In this document: one piece after another, positions 37,633 to 64,000 of the stretch
Layout of the letters: each line of letters starts with the position of its first letter
Position numbering within the stretch: position 1 is the first letter of the stretch
Origin: an uncultured archaeon
Lineage (GTDB): Archaea; Aenigmatarchaeota; Aenigmatarchaeia; Aenigmatarchaeales; DAIDAN01
Direction of reading: 5' to 3'
Length of the DNA: 64,000 nucleotides
NCBI GenBank assembly: GCA_964545795.1
Contig: CAZJGC010000001.1
Location: 6,585 to 70,584 of the forward strand
Position numbers and translations under genes: made by a program
Notes under the pieces: model-generated
Seen by the model: only the letters and a program-made list of their open reading frames with translations
Told to the model about the DNA's origin: nothing
Databases searched by the model: none

Positions 37633-37634
37633 AA

Positions 37635-41854: not shown

Positions 41855-42616
41855 ATGTTCGGAAAAAATGAATGCTCTGTGCAGGATTCTGCAAAATTAA
41901 CGCATCTGCTAATATCAATATGCGTTGCAGTCTTCTTTGTTGAGGTTCTTGTGCAATTTTTCTATGGTGAAAAATATCTCAGTTATTTCATAAATGAGTT
42001 TGGCTTTTCCTTAGCCAATGTTATGAACATGAATTTTATTACATTTTTCACATCAATATTTATTCACGCAGGACCAGAACATCTATTATTCAATATAATA
42101 GCGCTATATTTCTTCGGCAGAGTTGTTGAAGAACAACTTGGCTGGAAAAAATATTTGGCAATATTTTTTATAAGCGCAATTGCAGGAGATTTTGCAATTA
42201 TTTTTATGTCTTTGGTTGGTCTTTACTCTGCAACTGTTCCGACAGTCGGGGCTTCTGCTGCAATATTCGGACTGCTTGGCGTTTCTATATTTCTGAAGCC
42301 GTTTGACATGGTTATATATCCTTATGTTGTTCCTGTGCCGCTTATGCTGATAGCCACTTTATATATATTATATAATGTCATGGATTTTGCTTTGGTTATT
42401 GTCAGCGGAAAAGTTTCTGAAATTTCCTATGCCGCGCACATAGGCGGATTTATTGCAGGGCTCTTAATAGGATTAAAGATTGAAGGCAAGAAAAAAGGAT
42501 TTATGCTTATTTTGCTGTTTCTTATAATCGCCATCTCATTTTTGTTTCTTTGGAAATACCTGATTATTTTTGAAAAATTAAATTACATGTCCATATTTTC
42601 GCATGCAGTTAAGTAG
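41855..42616 (+). CDS. rhomboid-family intramembrane serine protease
   Basis: GASAAIFG (GxSG) and the downstream AHIGGFIAG catalytic His; 6-7 TM. Confidence 0.75.
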   Translation: MFGKNECSVQDSAKLTHLLISICVAVFFVEVLVQFFYGEKYLSYFINEFGFSLANVMNMNFITFFTSIFIHAGPEHLLFNIIALYFFGRVVEEQLGWKKYLAIFFISAIAGDFAIIFMSLVGLYSATVPTVGASAAIFGLLGVSIFLKPFDMVIYPYVVPVPLMLIATLYILYNVMDFALVIVSGKVSEISYAAHIGGFIAGLLIGLKIEGKKKGFMLILLFLIIAISFLFLWKYLIIFEKLNYMSIFSHAVK

Positions 42617-44811: not shown

Positions 44812-47298
44812 ATGAAGGGGCTGACAACAAAAGCCGCAAAGGAAAGATTAGAAAAATATGGCGAGAACACCATTAAAAGAGAAGAAAAGACGTCAGCATT
44901 TAGATTGCTATTGTCTCAGTTCCTTTCTCCTATAATTATTTTGTTAATTTTTGCATCACTCATTTCCTTTGCAGTGAACTTTGTAAAACATGAAGACTTT
45001 TTTGATTCTATTTTGATTTTGTTTATTGTCTTTGCTGCAGGAATTGCAGGATTTATTCAGGATTACAAAGCAGAAAGAGCTGTAGAGGCATTGCAGAAAA
45101 TGGCAACGCCGAATGCAAAGGTAATAAGAGACGGGAGAGAAATAAAAATAAAAGCAACAGAAGTTGTTCCAGGAGACTTGATTGTTATAGAAGGCGGTGA
45201 CGTCATACCTGCTGACGCAAAAATCATTGATGGCAGACTGGAAGTTGATGAATCGCCCTTAACAGGCGAATCAAAAGCAGTGAAGAAGAAGCCTGGTGAT
45301 AAAATTTTTTCAGGCTGCGGAGTTTATGCAGGCAGGGTTATTGCAAAAGTTTTTGCAACAGGAATGAATACTGAAGTTGGAAAAATTGCAGGGAAAATGC
45401 AAGAAATTAAGACAGAAGATACGCCTTTTCAGCTTCATATGAAGAAATTTACAGGCAAACTGGTTCTTATAACAGGATTGATAATTGTTATAACCTTTAT
45501 TGCAGGATTTGATAAATATGGTCCTCTAATGGCAGGACTGGTTGCTGTTTCTCTGGCTGTCGCCGCAATACCTGAAGATTTGCCTGCTGTTGTCACAATT
45601 GCGCTCTCGCTTGGAGCAAGAGACATGGTTAAAAGAAATGCGCTGGTTCGCAGGTTGGCAATAACAGAATCTATGGGTTCTGTTGATGTTATCTGCACAG
45701 ACAAAACAGGCACATTAACAAAAGGCGAAATGGAGGTTAGCGAACTGTGGTTTTTAAAAGAAAGCAGTGCAGCGCGCGATATGGCAATAGACTGCTGCTA
45801 CTATTGCAATGATTCAAAAGCTATTTTTGAAAGCAGGGAAAAAAGATGGGTTGGCGACGAGACGGATGTAGCACTAAAACGGTTCTCAAAGAAAAAAGTA
45901 AAACATCTTGGAGGACGCATAGATGAAATTCCATTCACAAGCGAAAGAAAGATGATGAGCGTAATATGTGAAATGGAAAATGAAAAAATCATTTTTTCCA
46001 AAGGTGCGCCTGAAGTTATTATAGGCAAATGCAGCAAGGCTGCGAATGGCGAAAAAATAACAAAGTTGGACAGAAAACTAAAAAACAGAATTCTGAACAA
46101 GAACAGGGAACTGGCATCAAAAGGTTACAGGGTTCTGGCCCTGGCATACAAAAAATATGAAAAACCGGTAGAGAAGAACTTGACTTTTGTTGCTCTGGTT
46201 GCTCTCTCAGACCCTCCAAGGCCTGAAGTAAAAAAGGCTATAAAAGACTGCTACTCAGCAGGCATAAGAATAATGATGATTACAGGAGACAATCCGCTTA
46301 CAGCAAAGGCAATCGCAGACGAGATTGGAATAAAAACAGCGTCTGTGGTTTCGGGCAATGACATAGATAAAATGAGCGAGGCTGAATTAAGAGAAACTCT
46401 GGACAAAGGCATCAATATTTTTGCAAGAACAAGCCCATTTCATAAATTGAGGATTCTGGAAGTTTTGCAGAAAAAAAAGCATGTTGTTGCCATGACAGGA
46501 GACGGCGTTAATGATGCGCTGGCGCTAAAAAAGGCGGATGTTGGAATTTCAATGGGAGTAAAAGGGACAGAAGTTGCAAAAGAGGCAAGCGATATTGTGC
46601 TGTTAGATGACAATTTTGCAACAATAAGAGATGCCATTAAAGAAGGAAGAAGAATATTTGACAATATAAGAAAATTTGTGGACTATTTACTAACCTGCAA
46701 TGTTGCAGAAGTTTCTGTTGTTTTTCTAACAACCTTATTTTTAACATTAAAATATCCAATACTTCTGCCTGTCCAGATTTTATGGATAAACTTGATAACT
46801 GATGGTTTGCCTGCCCTTGCTTTGTCTATTGACCCTGCAAGACCTGATGTTATGAAAAGGAAGCCAAGAAAGAGAGCGGAAGGCATTATAAATAAAAAAC
46901 TGGCTTTGCTCATCGGGGGTATTGGAATTAAAAAATCAATAGTTATTCTTGGCACATTTTTTATATCGCTTGCTTTAACTAATAACATAGATATAGCAAG
47001 AACAACTTTGTTCACAGGTTTTATAATGTATGAGTTTGTCAGAATTGGCGTTATAAGATATAATGAAAAGCTGGCAAGTTTGAAGGATTGGCTTGCAAAC
47101 AAATTTTTGTTTTATTCTATGCTTTTATCCCTAATTTTGCAACTCATATTAATTTATACGCCTGTTTCAAGATATTTCAATGTTATTCCTCTTGGCTTAG
47201 TGGAATGGAGCATTCTTATTGGCGGAACAATAATCGGGTTTGCGCTTGGAATTCTGATTGCCTGCGGAGTTGATAGGGCAACAAGGGAAGAGTATTAA
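44812..47298 (+). CDS. cation-transporting P-type ATPase (type II, Ca2+/Mg2+-like)
   Basis: DKTGTLT phosphorylation site, PEDLPAVV, TGDN, GDGVNDA. Confidence 0.85.
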   Translation: MKGLTTKAAKERLEKYGENTIKREEKTSAFRLLLSQFLSPIIILLIFASLISFAVNFVKHEDFFDSILILFIVFAAGIAGFIQDYKAERAVEALQKMATPNAKVIRDGREIKIKATEVVPGDLIVIEGGDVIPADAKIIDGRLEVDESPLTGESKAVKKKPGDKIFSGCGVYAGRVIAKVFATGMNTEVGKIAGKMQEIKTEDTPFQLHMKKFTGKLVLITGLIIVITFIAGFDKYGPLMAGLVAVSLAVAAIPEDLPAVVTIALSLGARDMVKRNALVRRLAITESMGSVDVICTDKTGTLTKGEMEVSELWFLKESSAARDMAIDCCYYCNDSKAIFESREKRWVGDETDVALKRFSKKKVKHLGGRIDEIPFTSERKMMSVICEMENEKIIFSKGAPEVIIGKCSKAANGEKITKLDRKLKNRILNKNRELASKGYRVLALAYKKYEKPVEKNLTFVALVALSDPPRPEVKKAIKDCYSAGIRIMMITGDNPLTAKAIADEIGIKTASVVSGNDIDKMSEAELRETLDKGINIFARTSPFHKLRILEVLQKKKHVVAMTGDGVNDALALKKADVGISMGVKGTEVAKEASDIVLLDDNFATIRDAIKEGRRIFDNIRKFVDYLLTCNVAEVSVVFLTTLFLTLKYPILLPVQILWINLITDGLPALALSIDPARPDVMKRKPRKRAEGIINKKLALLIGGIGIKKSIVILGTFFISLALTNNIDIARTTLFTGFIMYEFVRIGVIRYNEKLASLKDWLANKFLFYSMLLSLILQLILIYTPVSRYFNVIPLGLVEWSILIGGTIIGFALGILIACGVDRATREEY

Positions 47299-50029: not shown

Positions 50030-52438
50030 ATGGCAGATAACATGAATCAATCTAAAAGGTATGAACCAGGAGAAGTTGAGCCAAGAATACAAAAATTCTG
50101 GGAAGATAATGAATTGTTTAAATTTGACCGATGCAGCAACAAGCCTGTTTTCTCAATAGACACGCCGCCTCCTACAATTTCCGGACTAATTCATATGGGT
50201 CATACAATGAGTTATAATCAGGCTGAGTTTGTTGCCAGATTCTGGAGAATGATGGGTTATAATGTTTTCTATCCCATGGGTTTTGATGACAACGGCCTTC
50301 CAAGCGAACGTTATGTAGAAAAGAAACTTAATATAACAGCGAATAAAATGCCAAGGCATGAGTTTGTGAAACTATGTTTAGAAGAAACAAAAAAAGGTGC
50401 AGAACAATTTAAAAATGTCTGGAGAGAGCTCGGTATATCTGTTGACTGGTCATTGTCTTACAGCACAATAAACAAGTTGAGCCAAAGGATATCGCAAAAG
50501 TCATTTCTTGATTTATATAACAAAAATAGAGTTTACAGGGCTGAAGCTCCTGTAACTTGGTGCCCAACCTGCCAGACTGCTGTTGCGCAGGCAGAACTTG
50601 AAGATAATGAAAGAGAGTCATTCTTTAATTACATAAAATTTGATGTAGACAACGGAGAAACAATAACAATTGCTACAACAAGACCGGAATTAATGCCTGC
50701 GTGCGTTGCTGTGTTTGTCCACCCTGATGATGAAAGATATAAGAAATTCGTAGGAAGAAAAGTGAAACTGCCTTTCTTTGGAAGAGAAGTTCAGATTTAT
50801 GCAAATGAGTCTGTTGACATGGAATTTGGCACAGGCGCTGTTTATCACTGCACTTTTGGAGACATGGACGATATACACTGGGTGAAAAAGTACAACCTGC
50901 CTATAATAAAAATTATGAACAAGGATGGAACTCTTAATGAAAATGCGGGAAAATACAAAGGCATGAAATCTGAACAGGCAAGAAAGCAAATTTTGGAAGA
51001 CTTAAAAGCTGAAGGCAGGGTTGAGAAGCAGGAAAAAATCAGGCAGGTTGTTAATGTTCATGAGCGTTGCGGAACTCCTGTTGAATTTATTATGTCTGTT
51101 CAGTGGTTCATAAAAATTCTTGACATGAAGGAAAAATTGCTTGAACTTGGAAATCAGATAACATGGCACCCCGCTCACATGAAAATAAGATATGAACAAT
51201 GGGTGCAGGGATTGAATGCAGATTGGCTCATATCAAGGCAGAGATTTTTCGGAGTGCCTTTCCCTGTATGGTACTGCAAAAAGTGCGGCAGCATAATTCT
51301 TGCAGAGGAAAGCGAGCTTCCTGTTGACCCTGCTTATTCAAAACCAGATAGAAATTGTTCATGCGGTTCCTCTGATTTTGAACCGGAAAGAGACGTGATG
51401 GATACATGGGCAACATCATCTGTAACACCGCTCATAAACGGGAAATGGAAGGAAGAAGATTCAATGTTAGATAAAATATATCCTATGTCTCTGAGACCTC
51501 AGGCGCATGACATAATCAGGACATGGGCATTCTACACAATAGCAAAGTGTTATATGAATACAAATCAGATACCATGGAAGACTATTATGATTTCAGGACA
51601 TGGACTTGACCCTCATGGAAAGAAAATGTCAAAGTCAAAGGGAAATATTGTAGAACCTTTGCCTGTAAAAGAAAAATACTCCGCCGATGCGCTAAGGTTC
51701 TGGTCAGCTTCGGCAAACCTTGGCGAAAATCTTCCTTATCAGGAAAAAGATGTTGCCACGGGACAGAAACTGCTTACAAAACTATGGAATGCTTCAAGGC
51801 TTGCCGGAAAATACTTGGACAACAAAAAACCTGATGATTTGAAAATTATAGACAAGTGGTTGCTTAGCAAACTAATGAAGCTTGTAAGGTTTTCAACTGA
51901 ACGTTTTAAAGTTTGCGAATATGGCAGGGCAAAACTGGAAACAGAAATATTTTTCTGGCATGAGTTTGCTGACAATTATCTTGAGATGGTAAAATATAGA
52001 TTGTATGAAGGCAGTGACCAGTCGGCAAAATACACTCTTTACATAAGTCTGTTGACATTGTTAAAGCTGTTTGCCCCAATTATTCCGCACATAACTGAAG
52101 AAATTTATCAAATTTATTTTAGAAACAGGGAAAAAGAGATTTCCATACATATTTCAAAATGGCCTGAAGTTGATGAACAATTGATAAATGAAGAAGCAGA
52201 AGAGATTGGAGAAATGGCAAAAGAAATAATTTCTGCGTTGCGACAGTATAAAAGTTCGCGAAAACTTGCTTTAAACACAGAGTTGAAGAAAATTACTATT
52301 GAATGCGATGAAGAAGCAAAAAGAAAAATTCAGCAAGTTGCGCCTGATATAAAAGGCACAATGAAAGTCAAGGAAATAGAATTTGGAAAGGCAGATGAAA
52401 TTGAAGTTGGAAAAATAAGGATTAACGTAGAAAGATAG
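50030..52438 (+). CDS. valS: valine--tRNA ligase
   Basis: Class I motifs (PPPTISGLIHMGH, KMSKSKGN). The 802-aa length fits archaeal ValRS better than IleRS or LeuRS. Confidence 0.7.
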   Translation: MADNMNQSKRYEPGEVEPRIQKFWEDNELFKFDRCSNKPVFSIDTPPPTISGLIHMGHTMSYNQAEFVARFWRMMGYNVFYPMGFDDNGLPSERYVEKKLNITANKMPRHEFVKLCLEETKKGAEQFKNVWRELGISVDWSLSYSTINKLSQRISQKSFLDLYNKNRVYRAEAPVTWCPTCQTAVAQAELEDNERESFFNYIKFDVDNGETITIATTRPELMPACVAVFVHPDDERYKKFVGRKVKLPFFGREVQIYANESVDMEFGTGAVYHCTFGDMDDIHWVKKYNLPIIKIMNKDGTLNENAGKYKGMKSEQARKQILEDLKAEGRVEKQEKIRQVVNVHERCGTPVEFIMSVQWFIKILDMKEKLLELGNQITWHPAHMKIRYEQWVQGLNADWLISRQRFFGVPFPVWYCKKCGSIILAEESELPVDPAYSKPDRNCSCGSSDFEPERDVMDTWATSSVTPLINGKWKEEDSMLDKIYPMSLRPQAHDIIRTWAFYTIAKCYMNTNQIPWKTIMISGHGLDPHGKKMSKSKGNIVEPLPVKEKYSADALRFWSASANLGENLPYQEKDVATGQKLLTKLWNASRLAGKYLDNKKPDDLKIIDKWLLSKLMKLVRFSTERFKVCEYGRAKLETEIFFWHEFADNYLEMVKYRLYEGSDQSAKYTLYISLLTLLKLFAPIIPHITEEIYQIYFRNREKEISIHISKWPEVDEQLINEEAEEIGEMAKEIISALRQYKSSRKLALNTELKKITIECDEEAKRKIQQVAPDIKGTMKVKEIEFGKADEIEVGKIRINVER

Positions 52439-52474: not shown

Positions 52475-52752
52475 AGCAGGAGAATAGACCGGGTTGTTCG
52501 GCGTAACCTGTAACCCGAAATCGTCGTTATGCGGGGGTCGAAGTCTGGGAGCGCTTGCAGAAGTCTGTGAAGGCCTGCAATTCAACTGAGAAGCTTCGTC
52601 TTCTGGAGCTGTGGCTATAGTGAACCGACCCAGGTCCGGAAGGAAGCAAGTCTAATCTATAGTTACGGCGTTCAGAAGGTTGCGGAGTGGAGGCGAGTTG
52701 CAGGACTACCTTCGCAGGTTTTTGCCGGCAATCTCAGATGCTTCTCCTGCTA
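52475..52752 (+). ncRNA. ffs: signal recognition particle RNA (7S/SRP RNA)
   Basis: ORF-free, GC-rich ~280-nt island. It contains the universally conserved domain-IV motif CCAGGUCCGGAAGGAAGCA. A terminal helix closes it (5' GCAGGAGAA pairs with 3' UUCUCCUGC). Confidence 0.7.
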
Positions 52753-55614: not shown

Positions 55615-56007
55615 ATGGGCAAAACAAATAAAAAACCCGTTCTTCCAAGGCAGAAACTTAGTTTCGGGCAAAAAGCCGCGGATGAAGTAACAAAGTTTGT
55701 AGGAAGCTGGACATTTATATTTATTTTTCTTTTATATCTTTTTCTCTGGGTAATACTGAATGTTACAGCAATTGTGCAGAATTGGGACCCTTACCCGTTT
55801 ATTTTGCTAAATCTTACGCTTTCATGCATTGCGGCAATTCAGGCGCCTTTGATTCTGATGAGCCAGAACAGAACAGCTGAAAGAGACAGGATAAAGGCTG
55901 AAAGAGACTATATGGTTAACAGAAAAGCCGAGAAAGAAGTTGAAAACATGCAAAAAGACTTGGATGAAATAAAAGAAATGATAAGAAACCTTGAAAGAAA
56001 ATTATAG
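55615..56007 (+). CDS. DUF1003-family membrane protein
   Basis: Conserved core (WDPYPFILLNLTLS...QAPLILMSQNR) plus a coiled-coil tail. Confidence 0.55.
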   Translation: MGKTNKKPVLPRQKLSFGQKAADEVTKFVGSWTFIFIFLLYLFLWVILNVTAIVQNWDPYPFILLNLTLSCIAAIQAPLILMSQNRTAERDRIKAERDYMVNRKAEKEVENMQKDLDEIKEMIRNLERKL

Positions 56008-57360
56008 ATGCTTGCTCATATAATATTTTCCAAGTTTATATCCAAGAGTTCTGTAATATTCCCTGACTCCCACTCCCGAGATAACAGAAATTTTCTTAAA
56101 CCCATTTTCCATTGCAATTGCTTCAGCTTCTTGCATTAATTTCTTTCCCAAACCTTTATGCTGAATTATTCCCTTTTTATTAAGTCCTGCCTGCCTTCCG
56201 AATACATGGAGTTCTCTTACTATTGCCGAGTTCTCCAGCTCCTTTACGAATGTTCTTTCCTGCAGCCTTAATCTGAGAATTCCAAGCACTGTTTTATGCC
56301 TGTCTTCATATGATAAAAATATTTCCCTGCCTCCGGAAGCTCTATAATCTATTCTTTTAACTTTCAAAGAATCATAATCAATGTTTCTTCCATCCCTTAA
56401 AACATAACCTGCTTCCCTGCATCTTATGCATTTGCATTTCCTGCCGCGTGATTTTATTTCATCTCTAAGATGAGAATAAACACACTCTGATAATATATAC
56501 TCTGCAGGTATGTCGCGCATTACTCTCATAATTCTTACATATTCAGGAATATTCTTCTTTATTTCAATTATTGTTTCTATTATCTGCTGCGTAGTATAAG
56601 GTTTGTATTTTCCAGAATTGTAAAGATTCTCCAGTTCCGTTCCTTTTATAACAAGAGTTGGATATATCTTTATCTGGTCAGGCTGAAAACGTTCATCTGA
56701 GAAAAGCATCTCAAAAGTTTTAATGTCTTTTTCAGGAGAAGAACCTGGAAGCCCTATCATCATATGATAACCTACTTTGAAACCCGCCTGCTTTAATAGT
56801 TCTGTAGAAGAAACAACATCTTCTACTGTGTGTCCGCGTTTTATTTTTTTATAAATCCCATTATCAAGAGTTTGGACTCCAATTTCTACTCTTGTGCAGC
56901 CAAAATTAAGAAATCTTATTATTTCCTTTTCATCTAATTCCGGTCTTGTTTCAAGACACAGGGCAACGCATCTGTGTTTTGCTGTTTCATTTATCGCCTT
57001 CGCCTGTTCAAGGTTTTCCGATTCCTTTTCGTTTAGTCCGTCAAAACATGCCTTTACAAATGATTCCTGATAATTTTCAGGATAATTTGAAAAAGTTCCA
57101 CCCATTATTATAAGCTCAACTTTGTCTGTTTCATGCCCCAATATTTTCAATACCTTTAACCTTCCCTGCACCTGTCTTTTTCCATCCCATTTGCTTCTTA
57201 CAGCCCTGAGAACAACAGGACTTTTTGATGTGTAACTCTTTGGTATTCCAGGCTCAGAGGGGCAATATATGCAACTATTTGAACATGGAAAAGGCTTGAG
57301 CATAACAGCCACAGGAACAATCCCTGATATGGAACGCGTTGATTTTCTCGGTTTATGCAT
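56002..57360 (-). CDS. elp3: tRNA uridine(34) acetyltransferase Elp3 homolog (radical SAM + GNAT)
   Basis: CSNSCIYC radical-SAM cluster motif and a C-terminal GNAT acetyltransferase domain. Confidence 0.8.
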   Translation of the reverse strand: MHKPRKSTRSISGIVPVAVMLKPFPCSNSCIYCPSEPGIPKSYTSKSPVVLRAVRSKWDGKRQVQGRLKVLKILGHETDKVELIIMGGTFSNYPENYQESFVKACFDGLNEKESENLEQAKAINETAKHRCVALCLETRPELDEKEIIRFLNFGCTRVEIGVQTLDNGIYKKIKRGHTVEDVVSSTELLKQAGFKVGYHMMIGLPGSSPEKDIKTFEMLFSDERFQPDQIKIYPTLVIKGTELENLYNSGKYKPYTTQQIIETIIEIKKNIPEYVRIMRVMRDIPAEYILSECVYSHLRDEIKSRGRKCKCIRCREAGYVLRDGRNIDYDSLKVKRIDYRASGGREIFLSYEDRHKTVLGILRLRLQERTFVKELENSAIVRELHVFGRQAGLNKKGIIQHKGLGKKLMQEAEAIAMENGFKKISVISGVGVREYYRTLGYKLGKYYMSKHL

Positions 57361-57743: not shown

Positions 57744-58019
57744 TTATTTTTTATATATTTCCTCAATTACTTCTTTGCCAGAATCAGTCAGTTTAAGATA
57801 TACTGGTTTCCCGGAAGGATTAATTTGCTTAACATATTTTTCTTCAATTAATAAGTCAATATGTTTCTTTATAGCAACATGAGTTAAATTGAGTTTCTTA
57901 GATATAACATTCAAAAAACAAGGATTATTCTTTTTTTCACATTCATATAAAAATTTTATAATTTTTCTTCTAGTATCGGCTCCTTTGCTCCAGTAGAAAA
58001 GTATTGATTTTGATAGCAT
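57744..58019 (-). CDS. winged-helix transcriptional regulator
   Basis: 91 aa; wHTH pattern (FLNVISKKLNLTHVAIKKHIDLLIEEKYV). Confidence 0.55.
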   Translation of the reverse strand: MLSKSILFYWSKGADTRRKIIKFLYECEKKNNPCFLNVISKKLNLTHVAIKKHIDLLIEEKYVKQINPSGKPVYLKLTDSGKEVIEEIYKK

Positions 58020-58026: not shown

Positions 58027-58335
58027 TTACCCCATCTTCTCTCTTATCTTCTTCATAGAGGTAAAGAGTCCATATATTGCATAAGCAAACAATACAGACC
58101 CAATAATAACACTAATTTGCTGTATCACGAATCTGACATTATCTGTGATAATATGCAAGTCCCATGGAATCATTGCCCATTGATGTATTGCTAAGAATGT
58201 TGCTGATATAACCAACGCCAGCCAATATTTTTCGTTCTTTGTTTCTTTGGATAATTTAAATGCATAATATACAACAACAAGAAACCCTAATGACCCTAAA
58301 AGGATTAGAACCTGAAAAAATAGACTTATGTCCAT
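58027..58335 (-). CDS. hypothetical membrane protein
   Basis: 102 aa, 3 TM. Confidence 0.45.
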   Translation of the reverse strand: MDISLFFQVLILLGSLGFLVVVYYAFKLSKETKNEKYWLALVISATFLAIHQWAMIPWDLHIITDNVRFVIQQISVIIGSVLFAYAIYGLFTSMKKIREKMG

Positions 58336-58444
58336 TATAACACCTTCTATATATTTATTTTATGTATTTTTCTTATTTATATTAAGGTTACATTATAGTA
58401 ACATTTATAAATGTGTAATGTTTATTGAATATGTGGTGTTAAAA

Positions 58445-58870
58445 ATGGAAAAAGAAGATGCAGTTAAATTGATTTTAGTTCTGGCGGCAACTGTAGTTCT
58501 TGGGTTTGGCTTACTAAAAATATATAATTCATTTTACTCTTCTGATACCTCTGCAACACTTCAAACTCAGGCAAATGAAATTGCTTCTGGAGAAATTAAA
58601 GAAATTGTAATTAAAGGCAATGAATACAGTTTCACTCCGTCTGTCATTAAACTGAATAAAGGCGACAGAGTTAGAATTATATTTCAAAACACAGGCTCAA
58701 TAGCACATAACTTTGTTATAAACCAATTAGGTATTATATCAAGAACTATTGGTCCGGGACAGAGTGAAACAATAGAATTTATAGCAGACAAGACAGGGAA
58801 CTTTGAGTTTGAATGTTCTCTTCCAGGACATGCTTCCGCCGGAATGACAGGCAGAGTAACTATAGAATAG
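58445..58870 (+). CDS. membrane-anchored cupredoxin (plastocyanin/halocyanin-like blue copper protein)
   Basis: Internal ATG at 58445 with a TM anchor. Type-1 Cu ligand pattern H (AHNF) ... C-x2-PGH-x4-M (ECSLPGHASAGM). Confidence 0.65.
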   Translation: MEKEDAVKLILVLAATVVLGFGLLKIYNSFYSSDTSATLQTQANEIASGEIKEIVIKGNEYSFTPSVIKLNKGDRVRIIFQNTGSIAHNFVINQLGIISRTIGPGQSETIEFIADKTGNFEFECSLPGHASAGMTGRVTIE

Positions 58871-58878
58871 GTGAAAAA

Positions 58879-59541
58879 ATGAAAAATAAAAGCAACAAAC
58901 TATACAGCTATTTAATAATAATATTTGCAGCATATATTTTATTTACTTCGCAGCTTAATTTATCAGTTGCCGGATTAGGCATAAATATTATAGCTGGAAA
59001 CTCTGTTGATTCGCCAACAGGTATAGCTTCTCTGCCTGCAGGCGCTTCTGAAAGCGATGTTGTTTCTGCGATTCTCCCGCAGGATAAAGACATTAATAGG
59101 CCGTATTCATGGAAGGGTAAAACTGTAACATTAACTGCTTATCAACCTGGAAATGGCTATGATATGCTTGTGGACATGGAAAGATCAATATCAGTGAATT
59201 CTTTGGCTGCTGATCAAAAATCCAGATATAATAATTTAATTATGAAAATTTATCATCCTTGCTGCAATGCTCCTGTGGGCGCATGCGGATGCAAGCATGC
59301 TGTTGCTGTAAGAGGTTTAATTAAAAAGTTGTTGCAGGAAGGCTGGACAGATAAACAGATACTAAATGAAGTATTCTTGTGGTTGAGGTTCTGGTGGCCA
59401 AAGCACTATGCAATTATGGCTACTTATCTTGTTTCGCAGGGTGCAGACCCAAGCGAAGTAAGCTTAGAGGAATGGGTAGGAGAGAAGATGTCAACACTTA
59501 GAGCAGGAAGAGCCGCAGCAGCTCAATTAGGAATATCATGA
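58879..59541 (+). CDS. hypothetical membrane-anchored protein with Cys cluster (HPCCNAPVGACGCKH)
   Basis: ATG at 58879 after a GGTGA RBS. Single TM, then a domain with a C-C-x6-C-x-C-x-H cluster suggesting metal binding. Confidence 0.45.
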   Translation: MKNKSNKLYSYLIIIFAAYILFTSQLNLSVAGLGINIIAGNSVDSPTGIASLPAGASESDVVSAILPQDKDINRPYSWKGKTVTLTAYQPGNGYDMLVDMERSISVNSLAADQKSRYNNLIMKIYHPCCNAPVGACGCKHAVAVRGLIKKLLQEGWTDKQILNEVFLWLRFWWPKHYAIMATYLVSQGADPSEVSLEEWVGEKMSTLRAGRAAAAQLGIS

Positions 59542-59570
59542 TTATAAAAATATATGGAGGGGGATAAAAA

Positions 59571-59789
59571 ATGGAAAAAAACAATATGATATTGTTAGGC
59601 GTGCTGGCACTAATGATAGTAATATCTGCAGCGCAAGCCCTTCAATTCAATGCGCTATCAAACAGCCTAAATGACTTGAAAGTCAGCGGGGCTGTGTCAA
59701 CTGTACCACTAGCATCATCTGGACCAAGCAATAGCGCAAGCGTATCAAGCGTATTGTCAAACCTGCCAACACAAGTGGGCGGTTGCTAA
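59571..59789 (+). CDS. small secreted/anchored peptide ending in GGC
   Basis: 72 aa. N-terminal hydrophobic helix, a Ser/Ala/Asn-rich low-complexity body, C-terminal VGGC. Preceded by a GGAGGGGGA RBS. Confidence 0.35.
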   Translation: MEKNNMILLGVLALMIVISAAQALQFNALSNSLNDLKVSGAVSTVPLASSGPSNSASVSSVLSNLPTQVGGC

Positions 59790-59825
59790 TAAATAAAGGG
59801 AAAGAAGAAAGGAAAGGTTGATATT

Positions 59826-61310
59826 ATGAAAAAAGAACAGACTGCTCAAAGAAAATGTACAAAAAAGGAAAGAACTAAACATAAAACCAATCAAGAAAAT
59901 AAATGGACTTACAGGCTTTTAGCAGTTTTGGGAACTGTAATTCTATTTACCTTCCTTTCTTCTATGAATTTTTATGCTGCATTCACAGGAAAAGTTATAG
60001 AAATTAAACAGGAACTTGAGCCAGCTGAAATTGAAATAACAAAAATATCTCTCTCAAATTGCGATGACTGTTTTAATATAAGTTCTATAATAAGCAATAT
60101 AAAACAGCAGAACGTTAAAATAAAAAACGAAAAAACACTTGATTTTTCTTTGCAAGAAGCTAAAAATCTAATAGAAAGATACGGGATTAAGAAACTTCCC
60201 GCAATTATTGTTACAGGTGAAGTTAATAAATCTGCGGTTTATGGGTTTTTTAATTCAATCGGAGAAATAAGAGACAGCGCGTTTATTTTAACCAGCCAGG
60301 AACCTCCGTTCTACGACATTCAAGAAAAAAGGGTTATCGGAAGGGTTGAAATCATAAAACTGATTGATAACTCATGCTTAAATTGCTTTGATATGGAAAC
60401 TGTAGTTTCTCTTTTCAAACGAGCAGGGGTCACGATATCAGATGAAAAGAATGTAATGTATGACTCTGTGGAAGGCAGAAACCTAATTCAGAAATATGGA
60501 ATAAAAGAAATACCTGCCTTGATAGTATCAAAGGATATAACACAGTATAATTCTTTGCAACAAATATGGTCCCGCTTAAATGCTGCTGAAAAAAATGGCT
60601 TCTACGTGCTTCATGCTTTGCGACCTCCTTTCAGGGATTTGTTGCAAAATAAAATAGTTGGTCTAGTAGATTTAGTAATGCTGGAAGATAAAGCCTGTTT
60701 GCAATGCTACAATGTCTCTATTAACAAACAAATTTTAGCAAGATTTGGAATTTTCCCAATTACCGAAGAAACTTATGATATAAACTCAACTAAAGGGAAG
60801 GAATTAATCTCAAAATATAATATAGAAAAAGTTCCGATAATCCTACTGTCTCCGGAAGCCAAAGTTTATAATTCATTTGCGCAAGTCTGGAAACAGGTTG
60901 GCGATGTTGAAGATGATGGATGGTTTGTAATGAGAAATCCGGAATTATTAGGAGTTGTTAAAAACTTAACAACAGGAGAATTAATTGACTTGCGTTCTCA
61001 GCCGCAGCAAACCCAGCAGCAACCTCAACAAGAAAGCAAACAAGAAGTAAGAGAAATAAAGATTGACCTTTCAAATTATAAGTTTGAGCCGTCTTCTATC
61101 ACTGTAAAAAAAGGTGAAAAAATAAAGTTAATTCTGACAAGCAAAGATATTTATCATACATTCACTGTCGATGAACTGGGCATTAACATAGAGGTATTCC
61201 CAGGCCAGACTGTAACAAAAGAAATAGTGCCAAACAAGAGCGGAACATTTAAGTTGTACTGCGTTCCTCATGAAAGTCTTGGCATGGTCGGAGAGTTTAG
61301 CGTAGAATGA
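59826..61310 (+). CDS. membrane-anchored protein with three tandem thioredoxin-like CxxC modules and a C-terminal cupredoxin domain
   Basis: TM anchor. Three ~95-aa repeats, each with a CxxC (CDDC, CLNC, CLQC) and a YGI-K/E-x-PA-IV thioredoxin-fold signature. C-terminal type-1 Cu pattern (H...YCVPHESLGM). Confidence 0.6.
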   Translation: MKKEQTAQRKCTKKERTKHKTNQENKWTYRLLAVLGTVILFTFLSSMNFYAAFTGKVIEIKQELEPAEIEITKISLSNCDDCFNISSIISNIKQQNVKIKNEKTLDFSLQEAKNLIERYGIKKLPAIIVTGEVNKSAVYGFFNSIGEIRDSAFILTSQEPPFYDIQEKRVIGRVEIIKLIDNSCLNCFDMETVVSLFKRAGVTISDEKNVMYDSVEGRNLIQKYGIKEIPALIVSKDITQYNSLQQIWSRLNAAEKNGFYVLHALRPPFRDLLQNKIVGLVDLVMLEDKACLQCYNVSINKQILARFGIFPITEETYDINSTKGKELISKYNIEKVPIILLSPEAKVYNSFAQVWKQVGDVEDDGWFVMRNPELLGVVKNLTTGELIDLRSQPQQTQQQPQQESKQEVREIKIDLSNYKFEPSSITVKKGEKIKLILTSKDIYHTFTVDELGINIEVFPGQTVTKEIVPNKSGTFKLYCVPHESLGMVGEFSVE

Positions 61311-61876
61311 ATAAGAGGCTTGATAAGATGGAAAGAATTGTCTGCAAACACTGTGGCAAGAAATTCAGGTCTGAGGATTCTTTGCATCAACATAAGCAAG
61401 CCAGACATCAAGAAGAACTAAAAGGGATTTTTCATTTAAGTTCAGAAGGAAAAATAAAGATAAAAAGAACTGGAGTCTATTTAGGAGTTTTAGTTTTAAT
61501 TGCCTATGGCGTCTATCTTGGAATTGTCAACATAAAAACATATCCGCCAACTTCTCCGCAGGGTCATGTTGAGTCCTATCCGCCTTATAGAATAATGAAC
61601 GAACCAATACCAGAACCCATTCAAAAACATATATTGGAACATGTCTCTTCAGCTTCCGGAAACAGACCAGGAGTTTTAGTCCAATACAATTGCGAAAAAT
61701 TTAAATGCGAACAGGGCCTGATAGATAAGCTGGAAAGTATAGTGAAGAAATACGACTATGTTTATCTTGCTCCTTATCCCCAAATGGATGCTAAAATTGC
61801 TTTAACAAAAGCTGGAAAATTAGAAATTCTGGACAAATTCAACGAAGAAAGAATTATTAGATTTATTGGAGGTTGA
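61307..61876 (+). CDS. membrane-tethered protein with cytoplasmic C2H2 zinc finger and extracytoplasmic domain
   Basis: CKHCGKKFRSEDSLHQHKQARH (C-x2-C-x12-H-x3-H), one TM helix, and a ~110-aa C-terminal domain with CxxxxC. Confidence 0.5.
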   Translation: MNKRLDKMERIVCKHCGKKFRSEDSLHQHKQARHQEELKGIFHLSSEGKIKIKRTGVYLGVLVLIAYGVYLGIVNIKTYPPTSPQGHVESYPPYRIMNEPIPEPIQKHILEHVSSASGNRPGVLVQYNCEKFKCEQGLIDKLESIVKKYDYVYLAPYPQMDAKIALTKAGKLEILDKFNEERIIRFIGG

Positions 61877-62336
61877 TAGCATGAACATAAATAAAACACC
61901 AAGTTTCATAAAAAATATAAACATGTTGGCATCTTTATTAAAAAATCAACTTAATCTGCTTTTACTTCTTGCAATTATCATAAGCTTGGAGTTATTTCTT
62001 ATTTATGGGAAGATGATTAAATCTGCTTTAGATTATTTCCTTTTTGGCACTATTTCAACTCTTGCCGGGCTAATAATAGTAATTTCAGTGCATAAAGTAA
62101 GAACAAGCAGGTCATGCAGCATAAAAGAAGTTGGAAGCGGTTCTGCCGGGCTGTTTTTGGGAATTTTTGCTCAAATGCCGGTTTGCTGCGCTCCTATAAC
62201 CCTTGCTATGTTTGGGCTAACAGGAGCTTCTGTCTTTCTGGCTCAATACGGCGGCTGGCTAATTTATCTGAGCATAGCTATATTGAGCTTTGCGCTTGTG
62301 CAGTCAATAAAAACTTTAGAGAGGATAAGAGTATGA
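61866..62336 (+). CDS. hypothetical polytopic membrane protein (PVCCAP motif)
   Basis: 156 aa, 4 TM; overlaps the downstream ccdA start by 4 nt. Confidence 0.4.
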   Translation: MEVDSMNINKTPSFIKNINMLASLLKNQLNLLLLLAIIISLELFLIYGKMIKSALDYFLFGTISTLAGLIIVISVHKVRTSRSCSIKEVGSGSAGLFLGIFAQMPVCCAPITLAMFGLTGASVFLAQYGGWLIYLSIAILSFALVQSIKTLERIRV

Positions 62337-63292
62337 AAACAAGAAGGATAGGAATTATGCTTATGAGTCTTTCATTGCTATTGTTTATACTGCCCTCAGC
62401 TGTTTCAGCCACAAACCATCAAGTCTTTGGAAATATACAGCAGGCACAGCAACAATATATGCAACTTATCCAAAATGTTTCGTTGTTAGTAGCGTTTCTT
62501 GGAGGCATGCTATCTTTCTTAACACCTTGTGTAATTGGCATATTGCCTGCATATTTTGCATATGTTTTTCAGGAAAAGAAAGAACTAGTAAAAATGACTC
62601 TGTTTTTCTTCTTAGGGCTTATGGTTATTTTTATTCCAATTGGCCTTACAGCCTCATTCATAGGAAACCTGCTTATAATTTATAGAGAATCGCTGGCAAT
62701 TGCCGCAGGCGTATTGCTGTTTATTCTCGGCATTTTAATGATTCTTGGAAAAGGATTTTCATTCATTCCAATAAAAATGAAATCCCAAAGAAGTTCTCTT
62801 GGCATCTTTTTGTTTGGCATACTATTTGGAATTGGTTTTACTCCATGCAATGGGCCAATTCTTCTTGCTATTACCACATTAGCAGCGACTCAAACAATCT
62901 TTTATTCCGTAGCAATGTTTATACTTTATGGACTAGGAATGGCAATACCTTTGCTTGTCCTCTCATTTTTCTTTGATAGATTCAAAGTAATAGAAAAATT
63001 AGCTAAAGGGCATATGAAATTTACTTTCTTAGGAAAGGAGTTCAAAACCCATTGGACAGGCATTGTTTCCGGAGTGCTCTTCATAACCATTGGGCTTGTT
63101 TTTGTTGTTTTCAGAAACACAACCATATTCACTATTAAACTTGCCCAGCTTGGCTACCCATTAAGATGGGCTTACTCACTGCAAGAACAGATGATTAGAA
63201 GCCCTGTATTAGCAAATGCTCTTGCAGTAATCGGAATTGTTGTATTAGCACTCTTACTTTACTTCGCATATAAAACTTACAAAAGAAAGTAA
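62333..63292 (+). CDS. ccdA: CcdA/DsbD-family thiol:disulfide transmembrane electron transporter
   Basis: Internal ATG at 62333 with a signal sequence. DsbD-core signature (LSFLTPCVIGILPAYF) and a second conserved Cys (FTPCNGPIL). Confidence 0.7.
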   Translation: MKTRRIGIMLMSLSLLLFILPSAVSATNHQVFGNIQQAQQQYMQLIQNVSLLVAFLGGMLSFLTPCVIGILPAYFAYVFQEKKELVKMTLFFFLGLMVIFIPIGLTASFIGNLLIIYRESLAIAAGVLLFILGILMILGKGFSFIPIKMKSQRSSLGIFLFGILFGIGFTPCNGPILLAITTLAATQTIFYSVAMFILYGLGMAIPLLVLSFFFDRFKVIEKLAKGHMKFTFLGKEFKTHWTGIVSGVLFITIGLVFVVFRNTTIFTIKLAQLGYPLRWAYSLQEQMIRSPVLANALAVIGIVVLALLLYFAYKTYKRK

Positions 63293-63296
63293 TCAT

Positions 63297-63647
63297 ATGA
63301 AAAAATGGAACACATTGCCAATATCTTTTGCTTTGGGTATGTTAATTTTAGTATTTATAATAAACTTTACTAGTCAAAAGCAACAGGATAATTCAGATTT
63401 TGGTGAATCTTGCTTTGATAGAAGCACAGACAATTACCTTAGAGATATATGCGAAAAAATAAAAAATAGCAAAGAAAGAGATAGATGTTATTATGAAAAG
63501 GCTATCTTAGAGGGTTATACTAGAATTTGCCACTTGATTGAAAACAGAACAATGAAGCAAAAATGCGTAAGAAGTGTTAATATAATTCTTTCAAATAACG
63601 AAACACTGAAGCAAAGAGCGGAACAGTTTAATCCTTGTAAGATTTAA
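63297..63647 (+). CDS. small secreted Cys-rich protein
   Basis: 116 aa, signal anchor, 7 Cys. Confidence 0.45.
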   Translation: MKKWNTLPISFALGMLILVFIINFTSQKQQDNSDFGESCFDRSTDNYLRDICEKIKNSKERDRCYYEKAILEGYTRICHLIENRTMKQKCVRSVNIILSNNETLKQRAEQFNPCKI

Positions 63648-63657
63648 GGTGAGTGTT

Positions 63658-64000
63658 ATGAGAACAAAAATAAGATATTTAATGATAGGTATTTTTTCAA
63701 GCATGATTTTTCTACTGTTATTTGGCATAGTGACAGACTTAATTCCTAATCCTTGGTTCATTAGAATGGTTGGAAAAACATCGCTTGATTATTTCTTCTT
63801 AATTACTAGCTCTGTATTATTGGGCAGCTACATAGCAGTCCACCTTTATAAAAAGGACACCGCTGAAAAATGCAAAATTGCAACATATTCAGGCGGTGCT
63901 GGAAGTTTTCTGGCATTTGGCTGCCCGATTTGCAATAAATTGTTAGTTCTCTTGTTTAGTGCGACAACACTAATGACTTATTTTGAACCATACAGGCCAG
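63658..64000 (+). CDS. hypothetical membrane protein with CPxC motif; 3' end outside the window
   Basis: ATG at 63658 and open to the window end. TM helices and GCPICNKL. Confidence 0.4.
   Translation, partial: MRTKIRYLMIGIFSSMIFLLLFGIVTDLIPNPWFIRMVGKTSLDYFFLITSSVLLGSYIAVHLYKKDTAEKCKIATYSGGAGSFLAFGCPICNKLLVLLFSATTLMTYFEPYRP

Follow-up and report, generated by a model that had tools for sequence, protein, structure and literature searches.

Nine tightly packed genes near the end of an archaeal contig stretch form one operon, with a conserved palindrome and a TATA box in front of it. We put at about 50% the probability that this operon encodes a CcdA/thioredoxin-maintained cysteine relay that binds Cu(I) and passes it on at the cell surface. 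The operon most likely handles copper there because relatives of its Cys-motif proteins sit in copper-efflux operons of ultra-small bacteria. Nine same-strand genes had been listed in the preliminary description, and all nine ORFs were found in this place on the + strand: they run from 58445 to approximately 64062, the last one past the end of the window (the whole 64,000-nucleotide stretch that was analysed), with intergenic gaps of -4 to +36 nt. The features are as follows.

up91, 57744..58019, - strand: 91-aa winged-helix protein, divergent to the operon
up102, 58027..58335, - strand: 102-aa membrane protein with three predicted TM helices and zero Cys
promoter/operator candidate, 58387..58411, + strand: palindrome, then a TATA-like box
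g1, 58445..58870, + strand: membrane-anchored type-1 cupredoxin, 141 aa, one N-terminal TM helix
g2, 58879..59541, + strand: 220 aa, TM-anchored extracytoplasmic Cys-cluster domain with a CcmH-like helical core
g3, 59571..59789, + strand: 72 aa, N-terminal TM helix, Ser/Gly/Ala-rich linker, C-terminus LP.QVGGC-COOH
g4, 59826..61310, + strand: 494 aa, TM anchor, three thioredoxin-like repeats, C-terminal type-1 cupredoxin
g5, 61307..61876, + strand: 189 aa, N-terminal CX2CX12HX4H, TM helix, extracytoplasmic DUF3105 domain with a predicted thioredoxin-like fold
g6, 61881..62336, + strand: 151 aa, four TM helices, vicinal Cys PVCCAP within TM3
g7, 62333..63292, + strand: CcdA-type transmembrane thiol-disulfide electron transporter, 319 aa
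g8, 63297..63647, + strand: ORF of 116 aa, N-terminal hydrophobic segment (signal or TM), six Cys
g9, 63658..64000 (full end ~64062), + strand: MerT-like small membrane protein, GCPICN in a TM helix

The perfect palindrome GTTACATTATAGTAAC (58387-58402) occurs once in the window, with 0.01 chance matches expected, and is followed at 58404-58411 by the TATA-like TTTATAAA, 34-41 nt 5' of the g1 ATG. The block AAGGTTACATT..TAA.ATTTATAAA is kept in the intergenic regions of the archaeal loci L009 and L010, and the palindrome may serve as an operator. In both loci the up91-up102 pair also lies directly upstream of g2 (64-68% identity). up91, which has weak Pfam winged-helix matches (HTH_45 and HTH_34, E ~2e-3), is a candidate regulator of the operon; a Pfam search with up102 gave no significant family. 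At the other end g9 is the last gene of the cluster, and NreA and class I LysRS come after it. The preliminary description did not include the divergent upstream pair, the CcmH-like g2, the MerT-like g6 and g9 or the DUF3105/thioredoxin-like g5.

Both g1 (Pfam Cupredoxin_1, 5.7e-15; Copper-bind, 7.1e-10) and g7 (DsbD_TM, 8.1e-09; DsbD_2, 5.3e-07) exceed the gathering scores of the families that they match. The ligand set of g1, H..C-x4-H-x4-M, aligns with relatives, and the only two Cys of g7, C66 and C172, each lie within a TM segment. The g4 cupredoxin domain has the ligand set H..C-x2-H-x4-M and matches Cupredoxin_1 (Pfam, 9.1e-13), and the best PDB match of g4 is the cupredoxin 4hcf (1.2e-08). 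Its repeats carry CDDC, CLNC and CLQC, each with a cis-Pro position; C..C and P are invariant in the repeat alignment, and the Pfam Thioredoxin score is 23.8 bits against a cut-off of 23.5. The two type-1 cupredoxin domains, three CxxC thioredoxin-like repeats and CcdA of the preliminary description are thereby confirmed. The motifs are genuine: their columns are invariant across family alignments, which rules out low-complexity artefacts. The cupredoxin fold is the sole direct copper marker within the operon.

g5 had been read as a C2H2-zinc-finger protein. Its zinc-finger-like motif is on the cytoplasmic side, sub-threshold in Pfam and missing from the bacterial homologues; the conserved part of the protein is instead its extracytoplasmic DUF3105 domain (24.5 bits against a Pfam cut-off of 25; PF11303 is carried by 9/13 g5 homologues). 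This outer domain contains QYNCxxFxC and has H87, E89, H108, E111 and H112 invariant (alignment A4). As judged from the AF2 model (pLDDT 86), it is thioredoxin-like in fold, the top Foldseek matches being thioredoxins (prob 0.6-0.84, E ~0.1). Homologues of g5 are present in clusters L004, L019 and L020, and in L026 a g9-g5 homologue pair adjoins COX1 and a cupredoxin.

No Pfam or NCBIfam family was found for g2, g3, g6, g8 or g9, and no literature description of the operon was found, in agreement with the earlier remark that it is not a described one. The motifs of g2 are YHPCC-x6-CGCKH and FLWxRFWWPKHY, and H126, P127, C128, C129, G137, K139 and H140 are invariant in its family alignment (A1). 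A vicinal CC with C-x-H is typical of soft-metal sites (MerT, MerA tail) and untypical of CxxC redox pairs. CcmH (2hl7) is the sole meaningful Foldseek match in the PDB to the AF2 model of g2 (pLDDT 85.6; prob 0.99, TM 0.63, E 0.33) and the top weak match in sequence searches (Pfam, 13 bits against a cut-off of 25), a similarity that is statistically weak (E 0.06-0.7). The Cys loop of g2 occupies the place of LRCxxC in CcmH. The small g3 is a genuine gene whose product always ends in QVGGC: a homologue lies directly downstream of the g2 homologue at all loci with DNA beyond g2 (15/15), and the final residues ..P[STQ]QVGGC are invariant among homologues. Most proteins of the g2 superfamily themselves end in a Cys tail of the g3 type.

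Synteny of the core g2–g3–CcdA–Trx(–cupredoxin) extends to other archaea and to CPR bacteria, with CcdA and Trx modules downstream of g2-g3 in 12 of the 13 non-truncated loci. The genes are therefore not scattered in relatives, the arrangement that the preliminary description had named as speaking against it. Close loci additionally contain cupredoxins, HMA-DsbD_2-cupredoxin-like proteins, YHS and CopA. A sister subfamily of g2, with the motif RPCC..DCNH and the tail GG[GS]CG[AV] (79/82 proteins), was found at no fewer than 584 metagenome loci (at least 584). The recurrent order in 35 loci of at least 9 kb is CsoR, DUF1573, g2-like, CcdA, (HMA), P1B ATPase; YN(x)4P is present in all 34 full-length ATPases found in sister-subfamily loci, and MxxSS in 29 of them. 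The Y position is His in each full-length CsoR of these loci, giving C-H-C or C-H-H, the fingerprint of a Cu(I) sensor (PMC8643695), and by this residue pattern these regulators are of the Cu(I) type, not persulfide-type CstR. The copper link made in the preliminary description is thus strengthened, by the placement of the g2 superfamily within CsoR/CopA copper-efflux operons and by cupredoxin-CcdA-Trx fusions beside g2-g3 in CPR bacteria.

Judged by sequence, g6 and g9 are paralogous, weakly MerT-like membrane proteins (35% identity, 1e-8 by BLASTP; the g9-family HMM finds g6 at 4e-7). g9 had been called a CPxC membrane protein; GCPICN does lie in a TM helix. The copy in the window is incomplete, and the full protein, known from L003, has 134 aa. 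Its 69 homologues are for the most part from DPANN archaea. Neither protein reaches the Pfam MerT or MerC cut-offs: g6 has a weak NCBIfam MerTP match (0.077), and weak matches to Pfam MerT were obtained for 12/26 g9-family members (0.04 for g9, 2e-06 at best). The g9-family HMM also picks up the N-terminal TM domain of proteins with a C-terminal g2-like domain. Four of these have a Cys tail as a third part after the g9-like TM domain and the g2-like domain (P0034, P0078, P0114, L020:5864-7345), and two end without it (P0055, P0072). In a further fusion, P0025 joins MerC (Pfam 8.8e-08, exceeding the cut-off) to a g2 domain. These MerT matches and the MerC fusion would fit mer-type uptake of mercury, or of soft metal in general, with g3/g2 in the part of MerP and g6/g9 in that of MerT/MerC, Hg(II) being passed inward and then reduced or sequestered. 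So would a true MerA (GGTCVNVGCVPSK and C-terminal CC) beside g2-g3-CcdA/Trx in L007, L012 and L016 (3/16 close loci). MerA, MerR and MerP were not found in the operon or among the scanned window ORFs, however, and the broad subfamily is tied to CsoR/CopA operons and has MerA-like genes at no more than 3/80 of its loci; the copy inspected, in L050, is without the CxxxxC site and C-terminal CC pair. We know of no role of cupredoxins in mercury handling, and judge this reading quite unlikely.

g8 is lineage-specific and the least certain gene: no homologue was found in the 107 loci compared, the same genome excepted, and its membership in the system is suggested by operon position only.

For the copper relay, the analysis shows the domain identities, the conserved residues, the synteny, the gene fusions and the cop-operon setting of the superfamily; that a metal is bound, which metal it is, how electrons and metal are handed on and which way transport runs we infer from these, as follows. 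A relay of cysteine thiolates at the surface, with its own reductant supply, would capture and pass on a thiophilic metal, for which Cu(I) is the likeliest candidate. g7 would carry reducing equivalents of cytoplasmic thioredoxin across the membrane, and the three CxxC modules of g4, perhaps with the DUF3105 domain of g5, would spread the electrons and keep outward-facing cysteines reduced. The P-C-C..C-x-H cluster in the CcmH-like helical domain of g2 would bind the metal and pass it onward together with g3, a membrane-tethered flexible arm whose single terminal Cys would make it the partner of g2 in the handover; the two may be the split form of one protein found in bacterial copper-efflux operons. 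Within the membrane, the relay would run over the TM-helix Cys pairs of the MerT-like g6 and g9. The type-1 cupredoxins of g1 and of the g4 C-terminus may be copper clients receiving the metal or, alternatively, one-electron partners switching Cu(I)/Cu(II) state. Copper as the substrate is suggested by gene neighbourhood only, and as mercury genes and rhodaneses co-occur with the system, the substrate may be another. Several points count against a copper relay: the 64-kb window contains no CopA, CsoR, CopZ or HMA genes, MerA occurs in close loci, rhodanese neighbours are frequent, g6, g9 and P0025 resemble mercury transporters, the GGC tail resembles the SoxY arm, and the likeness of g2 to CcmH and of g9 to MerT has weak statistics. 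The host, moreover, is probably a fermentative DPANN archaeon, for which the benefit is not obvious.

The same redox modules could instead be a fixed line of electron export, from cytoplasmic thioredoxin through CcdA and the Trx modules to a type-1 copper centre. In organisms that lack quinones and cytochromes, such a line would supply electrons one at a time to an acceptor outside or to a copper enzyme, and the Cys-cluster proteins would have an accessory part. A single protein of ~710 aa combines CcdA with two Trx modules and a cupredoxin in L004, L008, L014 and L015; its catalytic Cys and H-C-H-M ligands are all retained, and it has no other Cys. Three Trx modules are likewise joined to a cupredoxin in g4, and free extra cupredoxins are found in L004, L016 and L026. 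According to a CPR genomics paper, CPR cupredoxins must receive electrons "by an unknown means" (PMC5581439), which also favours electron export. We know of no described case, however, in which a thiol pair passes electrons to type-1 copper. The most conserved partners are nevertheless g2 and g3 and not the cupredoxin, which is absent from L007, L011, L012, the L016 fusion protein and most cop-operon loci, and the window operon has no NirK, oxidase or other acceptor enzyme. We regard electron export as unlikely.

Sox depends on a CcdA homologue (SoxV) and thioredoxins (SoxW/SoxS). By analogy, g3 could be a swinging arm whose terminal Cys holds sulfane sulfur in persulfide form; its loading, unloading or reactivation would fall to the g2 domain and to CcdA/Trx. 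In SoxY a single Cys in the Gly-rich extreme C-terminus, GGCGG, is such a carrier arm (PMC6067878), which the tails ..VGGC (g3) and GG[GS]CG[AV] (sister subfamily) resemble. Rhodanese domains adjoin, or are fused to, g2-like/DUF1573 proteins at 28/80 loci and also occur in L007, L011 and L012, and g7 matches the rhodanese/DsbD fusion TsoB (NCBIfam, 9e-12, far below the cut-off). The window operon contains no rhodanese or sox gene, however, g3 is without a SoxY-like globular domain, the neighbouring regulators are Cu(I)-type CsoR and not CstR, and the cupredoxin, HMA and CopA partners are left unexplained, so that we give a sulfur carrier a slim chance.

Reduction in the cell envelope ordinarily runs through CcdA together with Trx-like proteins. 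The operon could accordingly serve general extracytoplasmic thiol-disulfide maintenance or oxidative folding, its Trx modules and CcdA reducing or isomerising disulfides of surface proteins and copper being the cofactor of an unrelated passenger domain. DsbA-like genes close by in L004, L016 and several cop-operon loci agree with this, but no DsbB, VKOR or other oxidant-generating component is found in the operon, and the strict g2-g3 pairing, the MerT/MerC fusions and the CsoR/CopA operon placement are left unexplained. We consider this very improbable, and found no specific support for the oxidative protein maturation offered in the preliminary description.

The copper relay can be compared with several known systems. 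In system I cytochrome c maturation, reductant passes from DsbD/CcdA through CcmG and CcmH to the apocytochrome. The g2 core matches the CcmH periplasmic domain and likewise lies downstream of a CcdA-plus-Trx reductant pathway, whereas its motif is HPCC-x6/7-C-x-H rather than LRCxxC, it has extra N- and C-terminal elements (WWPKHY helices), and the operon is without ccm genes or cytochrome c. As in Mer systems, small membrane proteins with a TM-helix Cys pair are predicted here to work with an outward Cys-motif metal-binding module, and the fusions of a MerC or g9-like TM domain, g2 domain and Cys tail mirror MerTP; unlike in Mer, g6 and g9 fall below the Pfam cut-offs, the outer module is not of the HMA/MerP fold, MerA and MerR are absent from the window, and the partners are cupredoxins, joined in relatives by CopA and CsoR. 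Compared with Sox, there is no SoxY/Z fold and no SoxAX/B/CD, g3 consists of TM helix, linker and tail only, and regulators and neighbours indicate copper rather than thiosulfate. Operons of the CsoR-CopZ-CopA kind known from Gram-positive bacteria are the setting of the g2 sister subfamily in CPR, together with HMA chaperones and P1B ATPases, whereas the archaeal window operon is without CsoR, CopZ and CopA; we know of no described cop operon with DUF1573, g2-like or CcdA genes, and a literature search likewise found none.

In Salmonella Scs copper tolerance ScsB is DsbD-like and ScsC/ScsD are thioredoxin-like, and the pathway from CcdA/DsbD through TlpA to ScoI/CoxB serves cuproenzyme assembly. 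The link between ScsB and copper is discussed in PMC7785015. The operon differs in having no Sco, PCuAC or ScsA (its likeness to ScsB/C/D is compared at the level of shared superfamilies) and in its clients, which are undescribed families (a CcmH-like CC..C.H domain, a terminal-Cys arm and MerT-like proteins). In Scs and TlpA a DsbD/CcdA conduit feeds external thioredoxin-fold proteins, for copper tolerance or copper-site assembly, and the operon is predicted to do likewise; its Trx modules, however, follow one another in tandem and share a polypeptide with a type-1 cupredoxin, to which CPR relatives add CcdA.

All nine genes of the operon (g1-g9) are present, consecutively on the plus strand from position 58445 to the end of the window, as the preliminary description had stated. 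Their spacing ranges from -4 to +36 nucleotides (nt), and no competing open reading frame (ORF) of more than 68 amino acids (aa) is found on the opposite strand across g1-g9. g9 is cut at position 64000; another assembly covering this locus has the complete protein, 134 aa in length, whose gene is followed there by NreA and then a class I lysyl-tRNA synthetase, and g9 is therefore the last gene of the cluster. Of the two divergent genes upstream of g1, one encodes a membrane protein of 102 aa and the other a winged-helix protein of 91 aa. The divergent intergenic region is 110 nt in length and contains a perfect palindrome (GTTACATTATAGTAAC, 58387-58402) that occurs only once in the window (0.01 matches expected by chance). 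A TATA-like sequence (TTTATAAA) located 34-41 nt upstream of the g1 ATG abuts this palindrome, and the block formed by the two elements is kept in two related archaeal loci.

A tRNA scan and an Rfam search identified no RNA feature within the operon, and no tRNA gene was found across the entire 64 kb. An archaeal SRP RNA is located at 52477-52749 on the plus strand (Rfam RF01857, 171.6 bits). The G+C content is low (0.28-0.30) at 20001-22000 and 36001-40000, compared with 0.34-0.40 elsewhere in the window, and the cumulative GC skew climbs almost monotonically over the window. The nearest relatives of the operon genes are found in metagenome-assembled genomes labelled Woesearchaeota, DPANN, Nanoarchaeia or 'Methanosarcinales'. 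The SRP RNA, these relatives and the diphthamide synthase and Elp3 genes all mark the host as archaeal. Genes for CopA, CsoR and HMA proteins are lacking from the 64-kb window, which counts against a pure copper reading; the cation ATPase that is present is not a copper pump of the P1B type.

Other genes in the window
39616-41823: PEP-utilising enzyme, housekeeping neighbour
41855-42616: rhomboid, housekeeping neighbour
42649-43491: diphthamide synthase, housekeeping neighbour
44812-47298, + strand: cation ATPase of the P2 type (Cation_ATPase_N/C, E1-E2_ATPase), distinct from the P1B copper pumps
50030-52438: class I tRNA synthetase, housekeeping neighbour
56002-57360, - strand: Elp3-like radical SAM, housekeeping neighbour

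The cupredoxin, CcdA and thioredoxin (Trx)-like assignments of the preliminary description are borne out by scores at or above the Pfam cut-offs, for Trx in the first module of g4. Cupredoxin_1 is matched by g1 with 55.7 bits and by the C-terminus of g4 with 48.6 bits (cut-off 27), and the closest solved relative of the operon cupredoxins in the PDB is the cupredoxin 4hcf (1.2e-08). Both type-1 ligand sets are complete (H..C-x4-H-x4-M in g1, H..C-x2-H-x4-M in g4) and align with those of the fusion proteins of CPR bacteria; by score and ligand pattern, g1 and the g4 C-terminus are predicted type-1 cupredoxins. g4 additionally contains three homologous modules of approximately 105 aa, each with a CxxC motif and a cis-Pro position; in the internal repeat alignment, C..C and the (K/E)(L/I/V)P position are invariant. 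Repeat 1 narrowly passes the Pfam Thioredoxin cut-off (23.8 vs 23.5), the Thioredoxin_8 and Thioredoxin_3 scores fall slightly under theirs, and repeats 2 and 3 are assigned solely by internal similarity (32% and 23% identity). g7 matches DsbD_TM (35.5 bits, cut-off 27.1) and has nine predicted hydrophobic segments. Its only cysteines, C66 (..LTPCVIG..) and C172 (..FTPCNGP..), both lie within such segments, and g7 is predicted to be a CcdA with just the two canonical transmembrane (TM) cysteines.

The Cys-cluster protein g2 falls outside every family in Pfam and NCBIfam. Its close family comprises 23 clusters from archaea and Patescibacteria/CPR bacteria (45-85% identity), in which YHPCC, G-K-H and FLWxRFWWPKHY are invariant. 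PCYCGC (PF13798) and CopG/DUF411 were rejected as assignments, there being no Pfam match to either at E-values of up to 1. Three independent weak signals, from Pfam, a PDB profile search and a fold search, all point to CcmH. The Pfam CcmH score of g2 is below the cut-off (13.1 bits vs 25, E = 0.058), and its relatives score 17-19 bits (E = 1e-3 to 3e-3); the top two matches of the g2 profile to PDB sequences are both CcmH (E of approximately 0.7-0.9). The AF2 model of g2 (pLDDT 85.6) has CcmH 2hl7 as its top Foldseek match, with a probability of 0.99, a target TM score of 0.63 and an rmsd of 2.5 Å over 64 columns but an E-value of 0.33; every other match has a probability of 0.06 or less. By this comparison the model has the three-helix-bundle periplasmic fold of CcmH. 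The CcmH motif LRCxxC is absent, with YHPCC and then CGCKH at the aligned position, and the operon and 16 related loci contain neither ccm genes nor c-type cytochromes. Because motif, score and context all differ from those of CcmH, g2 is described as CcmH-like in predicted fold only.

By established chemistry, a vicinal CC combined with a C-x-H motif is more in keeping with metal ligands than with a catalytic disulfide, and the CC and C-x-H of g2 would accordingly favour a metal site. Generic maintenance of envelope thiols as the function of the whole operon is considered very improbable.

The short protein g3 is judged to be the product of a real gene: wherever sequence beyond the g2 homologue is available (15 loci), a g3 homologue lies immediately 3' of it, and in every case a TM helix at the N-terminus leads through a low-complexity linker to the invariant extreme C-terminus ..P[STQ]QVGGC. 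The tails of g3 (..QVGGC) and of a sister subfamily of g2-like RPCC..DCNH proteins in CPR bacteria (GG[GS]CG[AV]) are similar to the sulfur-binding C-terminal GGCGG arm of SoxY (PMC6067878), a likeness that counts against a pure copper reading, as does the frequency of rhodaneses among the neighbours of g2-like genes. g3 lacks a globular domain, and no sox genes were found in the operon or the related loci; a SoxY-like sulfur carrier is thought decidedly improbable.

g5 falls just short of the Pfam DUF3105 cut-off (24.5 vs 25 bits), and PF11303 (DUF3105) is annotated in 9/13 of its homologues. The C2H2 zinc finger proposed in the preliminary description holds as a pattern: the CX2CX12HX4H N-terminus is kept in six archaeal homologues. 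It is sub-threshold in Pfam (zf-C2H2, 18.9 vs 25.2) and absent from the bacterial homologues, and the conserved part of g5 would be the outward-facing DUF3105 domain rather than the zinc-finger-like N-terminus. PDB matches to the AF2 model of g5 (pLDDT 86) are almost exclusively thioredoxins (probability 0.6-0.84, E of approximately 0.1), with QYNCxxFxC of g5 occupying the position of their CxxC.

The membrane proteins g6 and g9 are paralogues whose Cys pairs (C102-C103 in g6, C89/C92 in g9) are invariant and lie inside predicted TM segments. The g9 family has 69 homologues, mainly from DPANN archaea plus one haloarchaeon. It is the only operon family to match Pfam MerT repeatedly, though weakly: g9 itself is below the cut-off (14.4 vs 32.9 bits), and weak matches are seen in 12/26 members (best 2e-06). 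The only g9 homologue flagged as PF02411 MerT is found in the related locus L026, where this gene and a g5/DUF3105 homologue lie directly 3' of heme-copper oxidase subunit I (COX1) and DUF1264 (5272-8537); the contig also encodes another DUF3105 protein and a cupredoxin. No homologue of the six-Cys protein g8 from outside its own genome was found in any of the fetched related loci. In the Woesearchaeota relative L011, the place of g5 and g8, between the g9-like gene and CcdA, is taken by a protein of 432 aa (10775-12073) that has two rhodanese domains and, at its N-terminus, a region with weak likeness to HMA. A further family of membrane proteins (approximately 145 aa, four TM helices, no Pfam match), which is only distantly similar to g6, has the invariant motif ..(M/I)(V/A)CCAHH..D.LP.LG.. 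and recurs in cop-type operons (18/80 loci); its members include L007:7009-7467, L018:6705-7154, L020:1896-2345 and L038:8783-9220, with approximately 20 further loci.

The core gene order is conserved: in 12 of the 13 related loci of full extent, g2-g3 is followed by CcdA and Trx modules. Homologues of g5 are found in L004, L019 and L020; L004, L011, L017, L018 and L020 have g9-like or g6-like genes. For the g2 C-terminal domain, at least 384 representative clusters (50% identity) were recovered by an exhaustive HMM search, and the best-scoring 150 representatives were examined. In ten of these 150, a g9-like TM domain (g9 HMM, down to 6.6e-09) precedes a g2-like domain, and in 79 the C-terminus is a Gly-rich tail whose Cys is the last or nearly the last residue (LPxMVGGC or GG[GS]CG[AV]). 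One representative, P0025, combines MerC with the g2 domain and is the sole protein to pass the Pfam MerC cut-off (33.1 vs 27.6). Because these parts are found as one polypeptide elsewhere, there is strong evidence that the g9-like, g2-like and g3-like parts function together, and that g2 and g3 of the window represent a split version of one protein.

In four CPR loci, CcdA, two Trx modules and a cupredoxin form a single protein of approximately 710 aa, whose cysteines are confined to the two of CcdA, those of two CxxC motifs and the one that ligates copper. Fusion of the entire chain lends appeal to a conduit that would export electrons and end in a blue-copper centre, and a study of CPR bacteria leaves the electron source of their cupredoxins open, with electrons arriving by 'unknown means' (PMC5581439). 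We regard this conduit as the explanation of the operon as quite unlikely.

A copper context is seen for the sister subfamily, which is the most abundant (at least 584 loci in a metagenome scan, of which 80 were fetched). ORFs of these loci were annotated with seed sequences and HMMs, and gene order was read in 35 loci of at least 9 kb. The recurrent order is CsoR, DUF1573, g2-like protein, CcdA, (HMA protein) and P1B ATPase. An HMA/DsbD_2/cupredoxin-like protein is a frequent addition, and roughly one locus in three has a rhodanese. YN(x)4P is present in 34/34 full-length P1B ATPases and MxxSS in 29/34. In every CsoR copy of full length, the Y position is occupied by His (C-H-C or C-H-H), a fingerprint of Cu(I) sensors as opposed to the persulfide sensor CstR (PMC8643695), and assignment to CstR was rejected for this reason. 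Close-family loci also carry cupredoxins, HMA-DsbD_2-cupredoxin-like proteins, YHS, CsoR and CopA, and the g9 and g5 homologue pair of L026 adjoins COX1 and a cupredoxin.

DUF1573 Ig-like proteins with a conserved T-S-C-x-C-T, often fused to rhodanese, are encoded directly 5' of the g2-like gene in most CPR cop operons (55/80 loci, e.g. L037:6489-6992, L021:390-887, L050:7845-8618); no functional literature on DUF1573 proteins was found. In five CPR loci, the g2-g3-CcdA cluster is flanked by genes for a BlaI-like repressor and a BlaR1-like membrane protease of the M56 family, which suggests that a protease-coupled sensor controls bacterial versions of the cluster. These regulators were rejected as CopY, as they lack the C-terminal CxCx4CxC and are paired with M56 BlaR1-like proteases.

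BlaI/BlaR1-like pairs in CPR loci
L004:11253-12648
L008:1669-3046
L014:1111-2470
L015:4660-6030
L016:5669-7020

True MerA adjoins g2-g3 in 3 of the 16 close loci, and this too counts against a pure copper reading. These three proteins carry GGTCVNVGCVPSK at the active site, have a CC pair at the C-terminus and are devoid of an N-terminal HMA domain. The 'MerA-like' label from the seed search covers heterogeneous proteins; the one in L050, in which CxxxxC and the CC pair at the C-terminus are both missing, was rejected as MerA.

Core MerA genes in CPR loci, beside g2-g3-CcdA/Trx
L007:59-1501
L012:5996-7399
L016:4129-5541

Neither merA nor merR is present in the window operon, and a mercury module of the mer type is deemed improbable. 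The metal island of L007 also encodes a Cys-rich 197-aa protein with QYDCCIANPCNYC..CACR..HPCGEC (10068-10661) and a YHS protein with the C-terminus SGCGGCC (7715-7933).

We favour, with a probability of roughly 0.5, a cysteine relay that would bind Cu(I) and pass it on at the cell surface; confidence in each single step is lower than in this general statement. CcdA (g7) would export reducing power, and the Trx modules of g4, possibly with the Trx-like domain of g5, would hold the outer cysteines reduced. The Cys3His cluster of g2 and the terminal-Cys arm of g3 may then bind Cu(I) and transfer it, with g6 and g9 as the putative membrane station of the relay, whichever way transfer runs. The cupredoxin domains could be clients or one-electron partners. 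Copper handling, as suggested in the preliminary description, is thus supported by the comparative evidence, short of proof; the oxidative protein maturation suggested alongside it gained no specific support.

A broader, joint reading is held to be unlikely: that g2 and the g3-type tail form a new extracytoplasmic metal carrier linked with a CcdA-thioredoxin-cupredoxin conduit. In the carrier, a terminal Cys on a flexible Gly-rich arm would shuttle Cu(I) or other thiophilic cargo between the CcmH-like Cys3His station and the MerT-like membrane proteins; common to DPANN archaea and CPR bacteria, it would do for metals what the SoxY arm does for sulfur. The conduit would be a quinone- and cytochrome-independent route from cytoplasmic reducing power to an external blue-copper centre, and could be the 'unknown means' by which the external copper proteins of ultra-small fermenters receive electrons.

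DPANN archaea and CPR bacteria, which are abundant and have not been cultivated, live attached to surfaces and have minimal redox machinery. In the operon, a reductant exporter is linked with several families of cysteine-motif proteins that are undescribed, widespread (at least 384 clusters, and at least 584 loci for one subfamily) and, in bacteria, built into CsoR/CopA copper-efflux operons. The relay, if true, would constitute a new extracytoplasmic layer of copper homeostasis in monoderm-like cells and an analogue of SoxY whose swinging arm carries metal; the conduit, if true, would be a new way to move electrons across the membrane to a metal centre. DUF3105, DUF1573 and three families currently without a model gain testable functions.

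No curated models exist for the g2, g3 and g6/g9 families, and no literature description of these families or of the operon was found, in agreement with the initial view that it is not a described operon. It belongs to none of the Scs/CcdA-TlpA-Sco, Ccm, Mer or SoxY systems. Scs and CcdA-TlpA-Sco are reductant pathways serving copper, to which the operon is likened by architecture only (CcdA, Trx fold, copper protein). The order from CcdA to Trx to CcmH in Ccm resembles the logic of the operon, as do the Cys-pair transporters and outer binding module of Mer and the terminal-Cys arm of SoxY.
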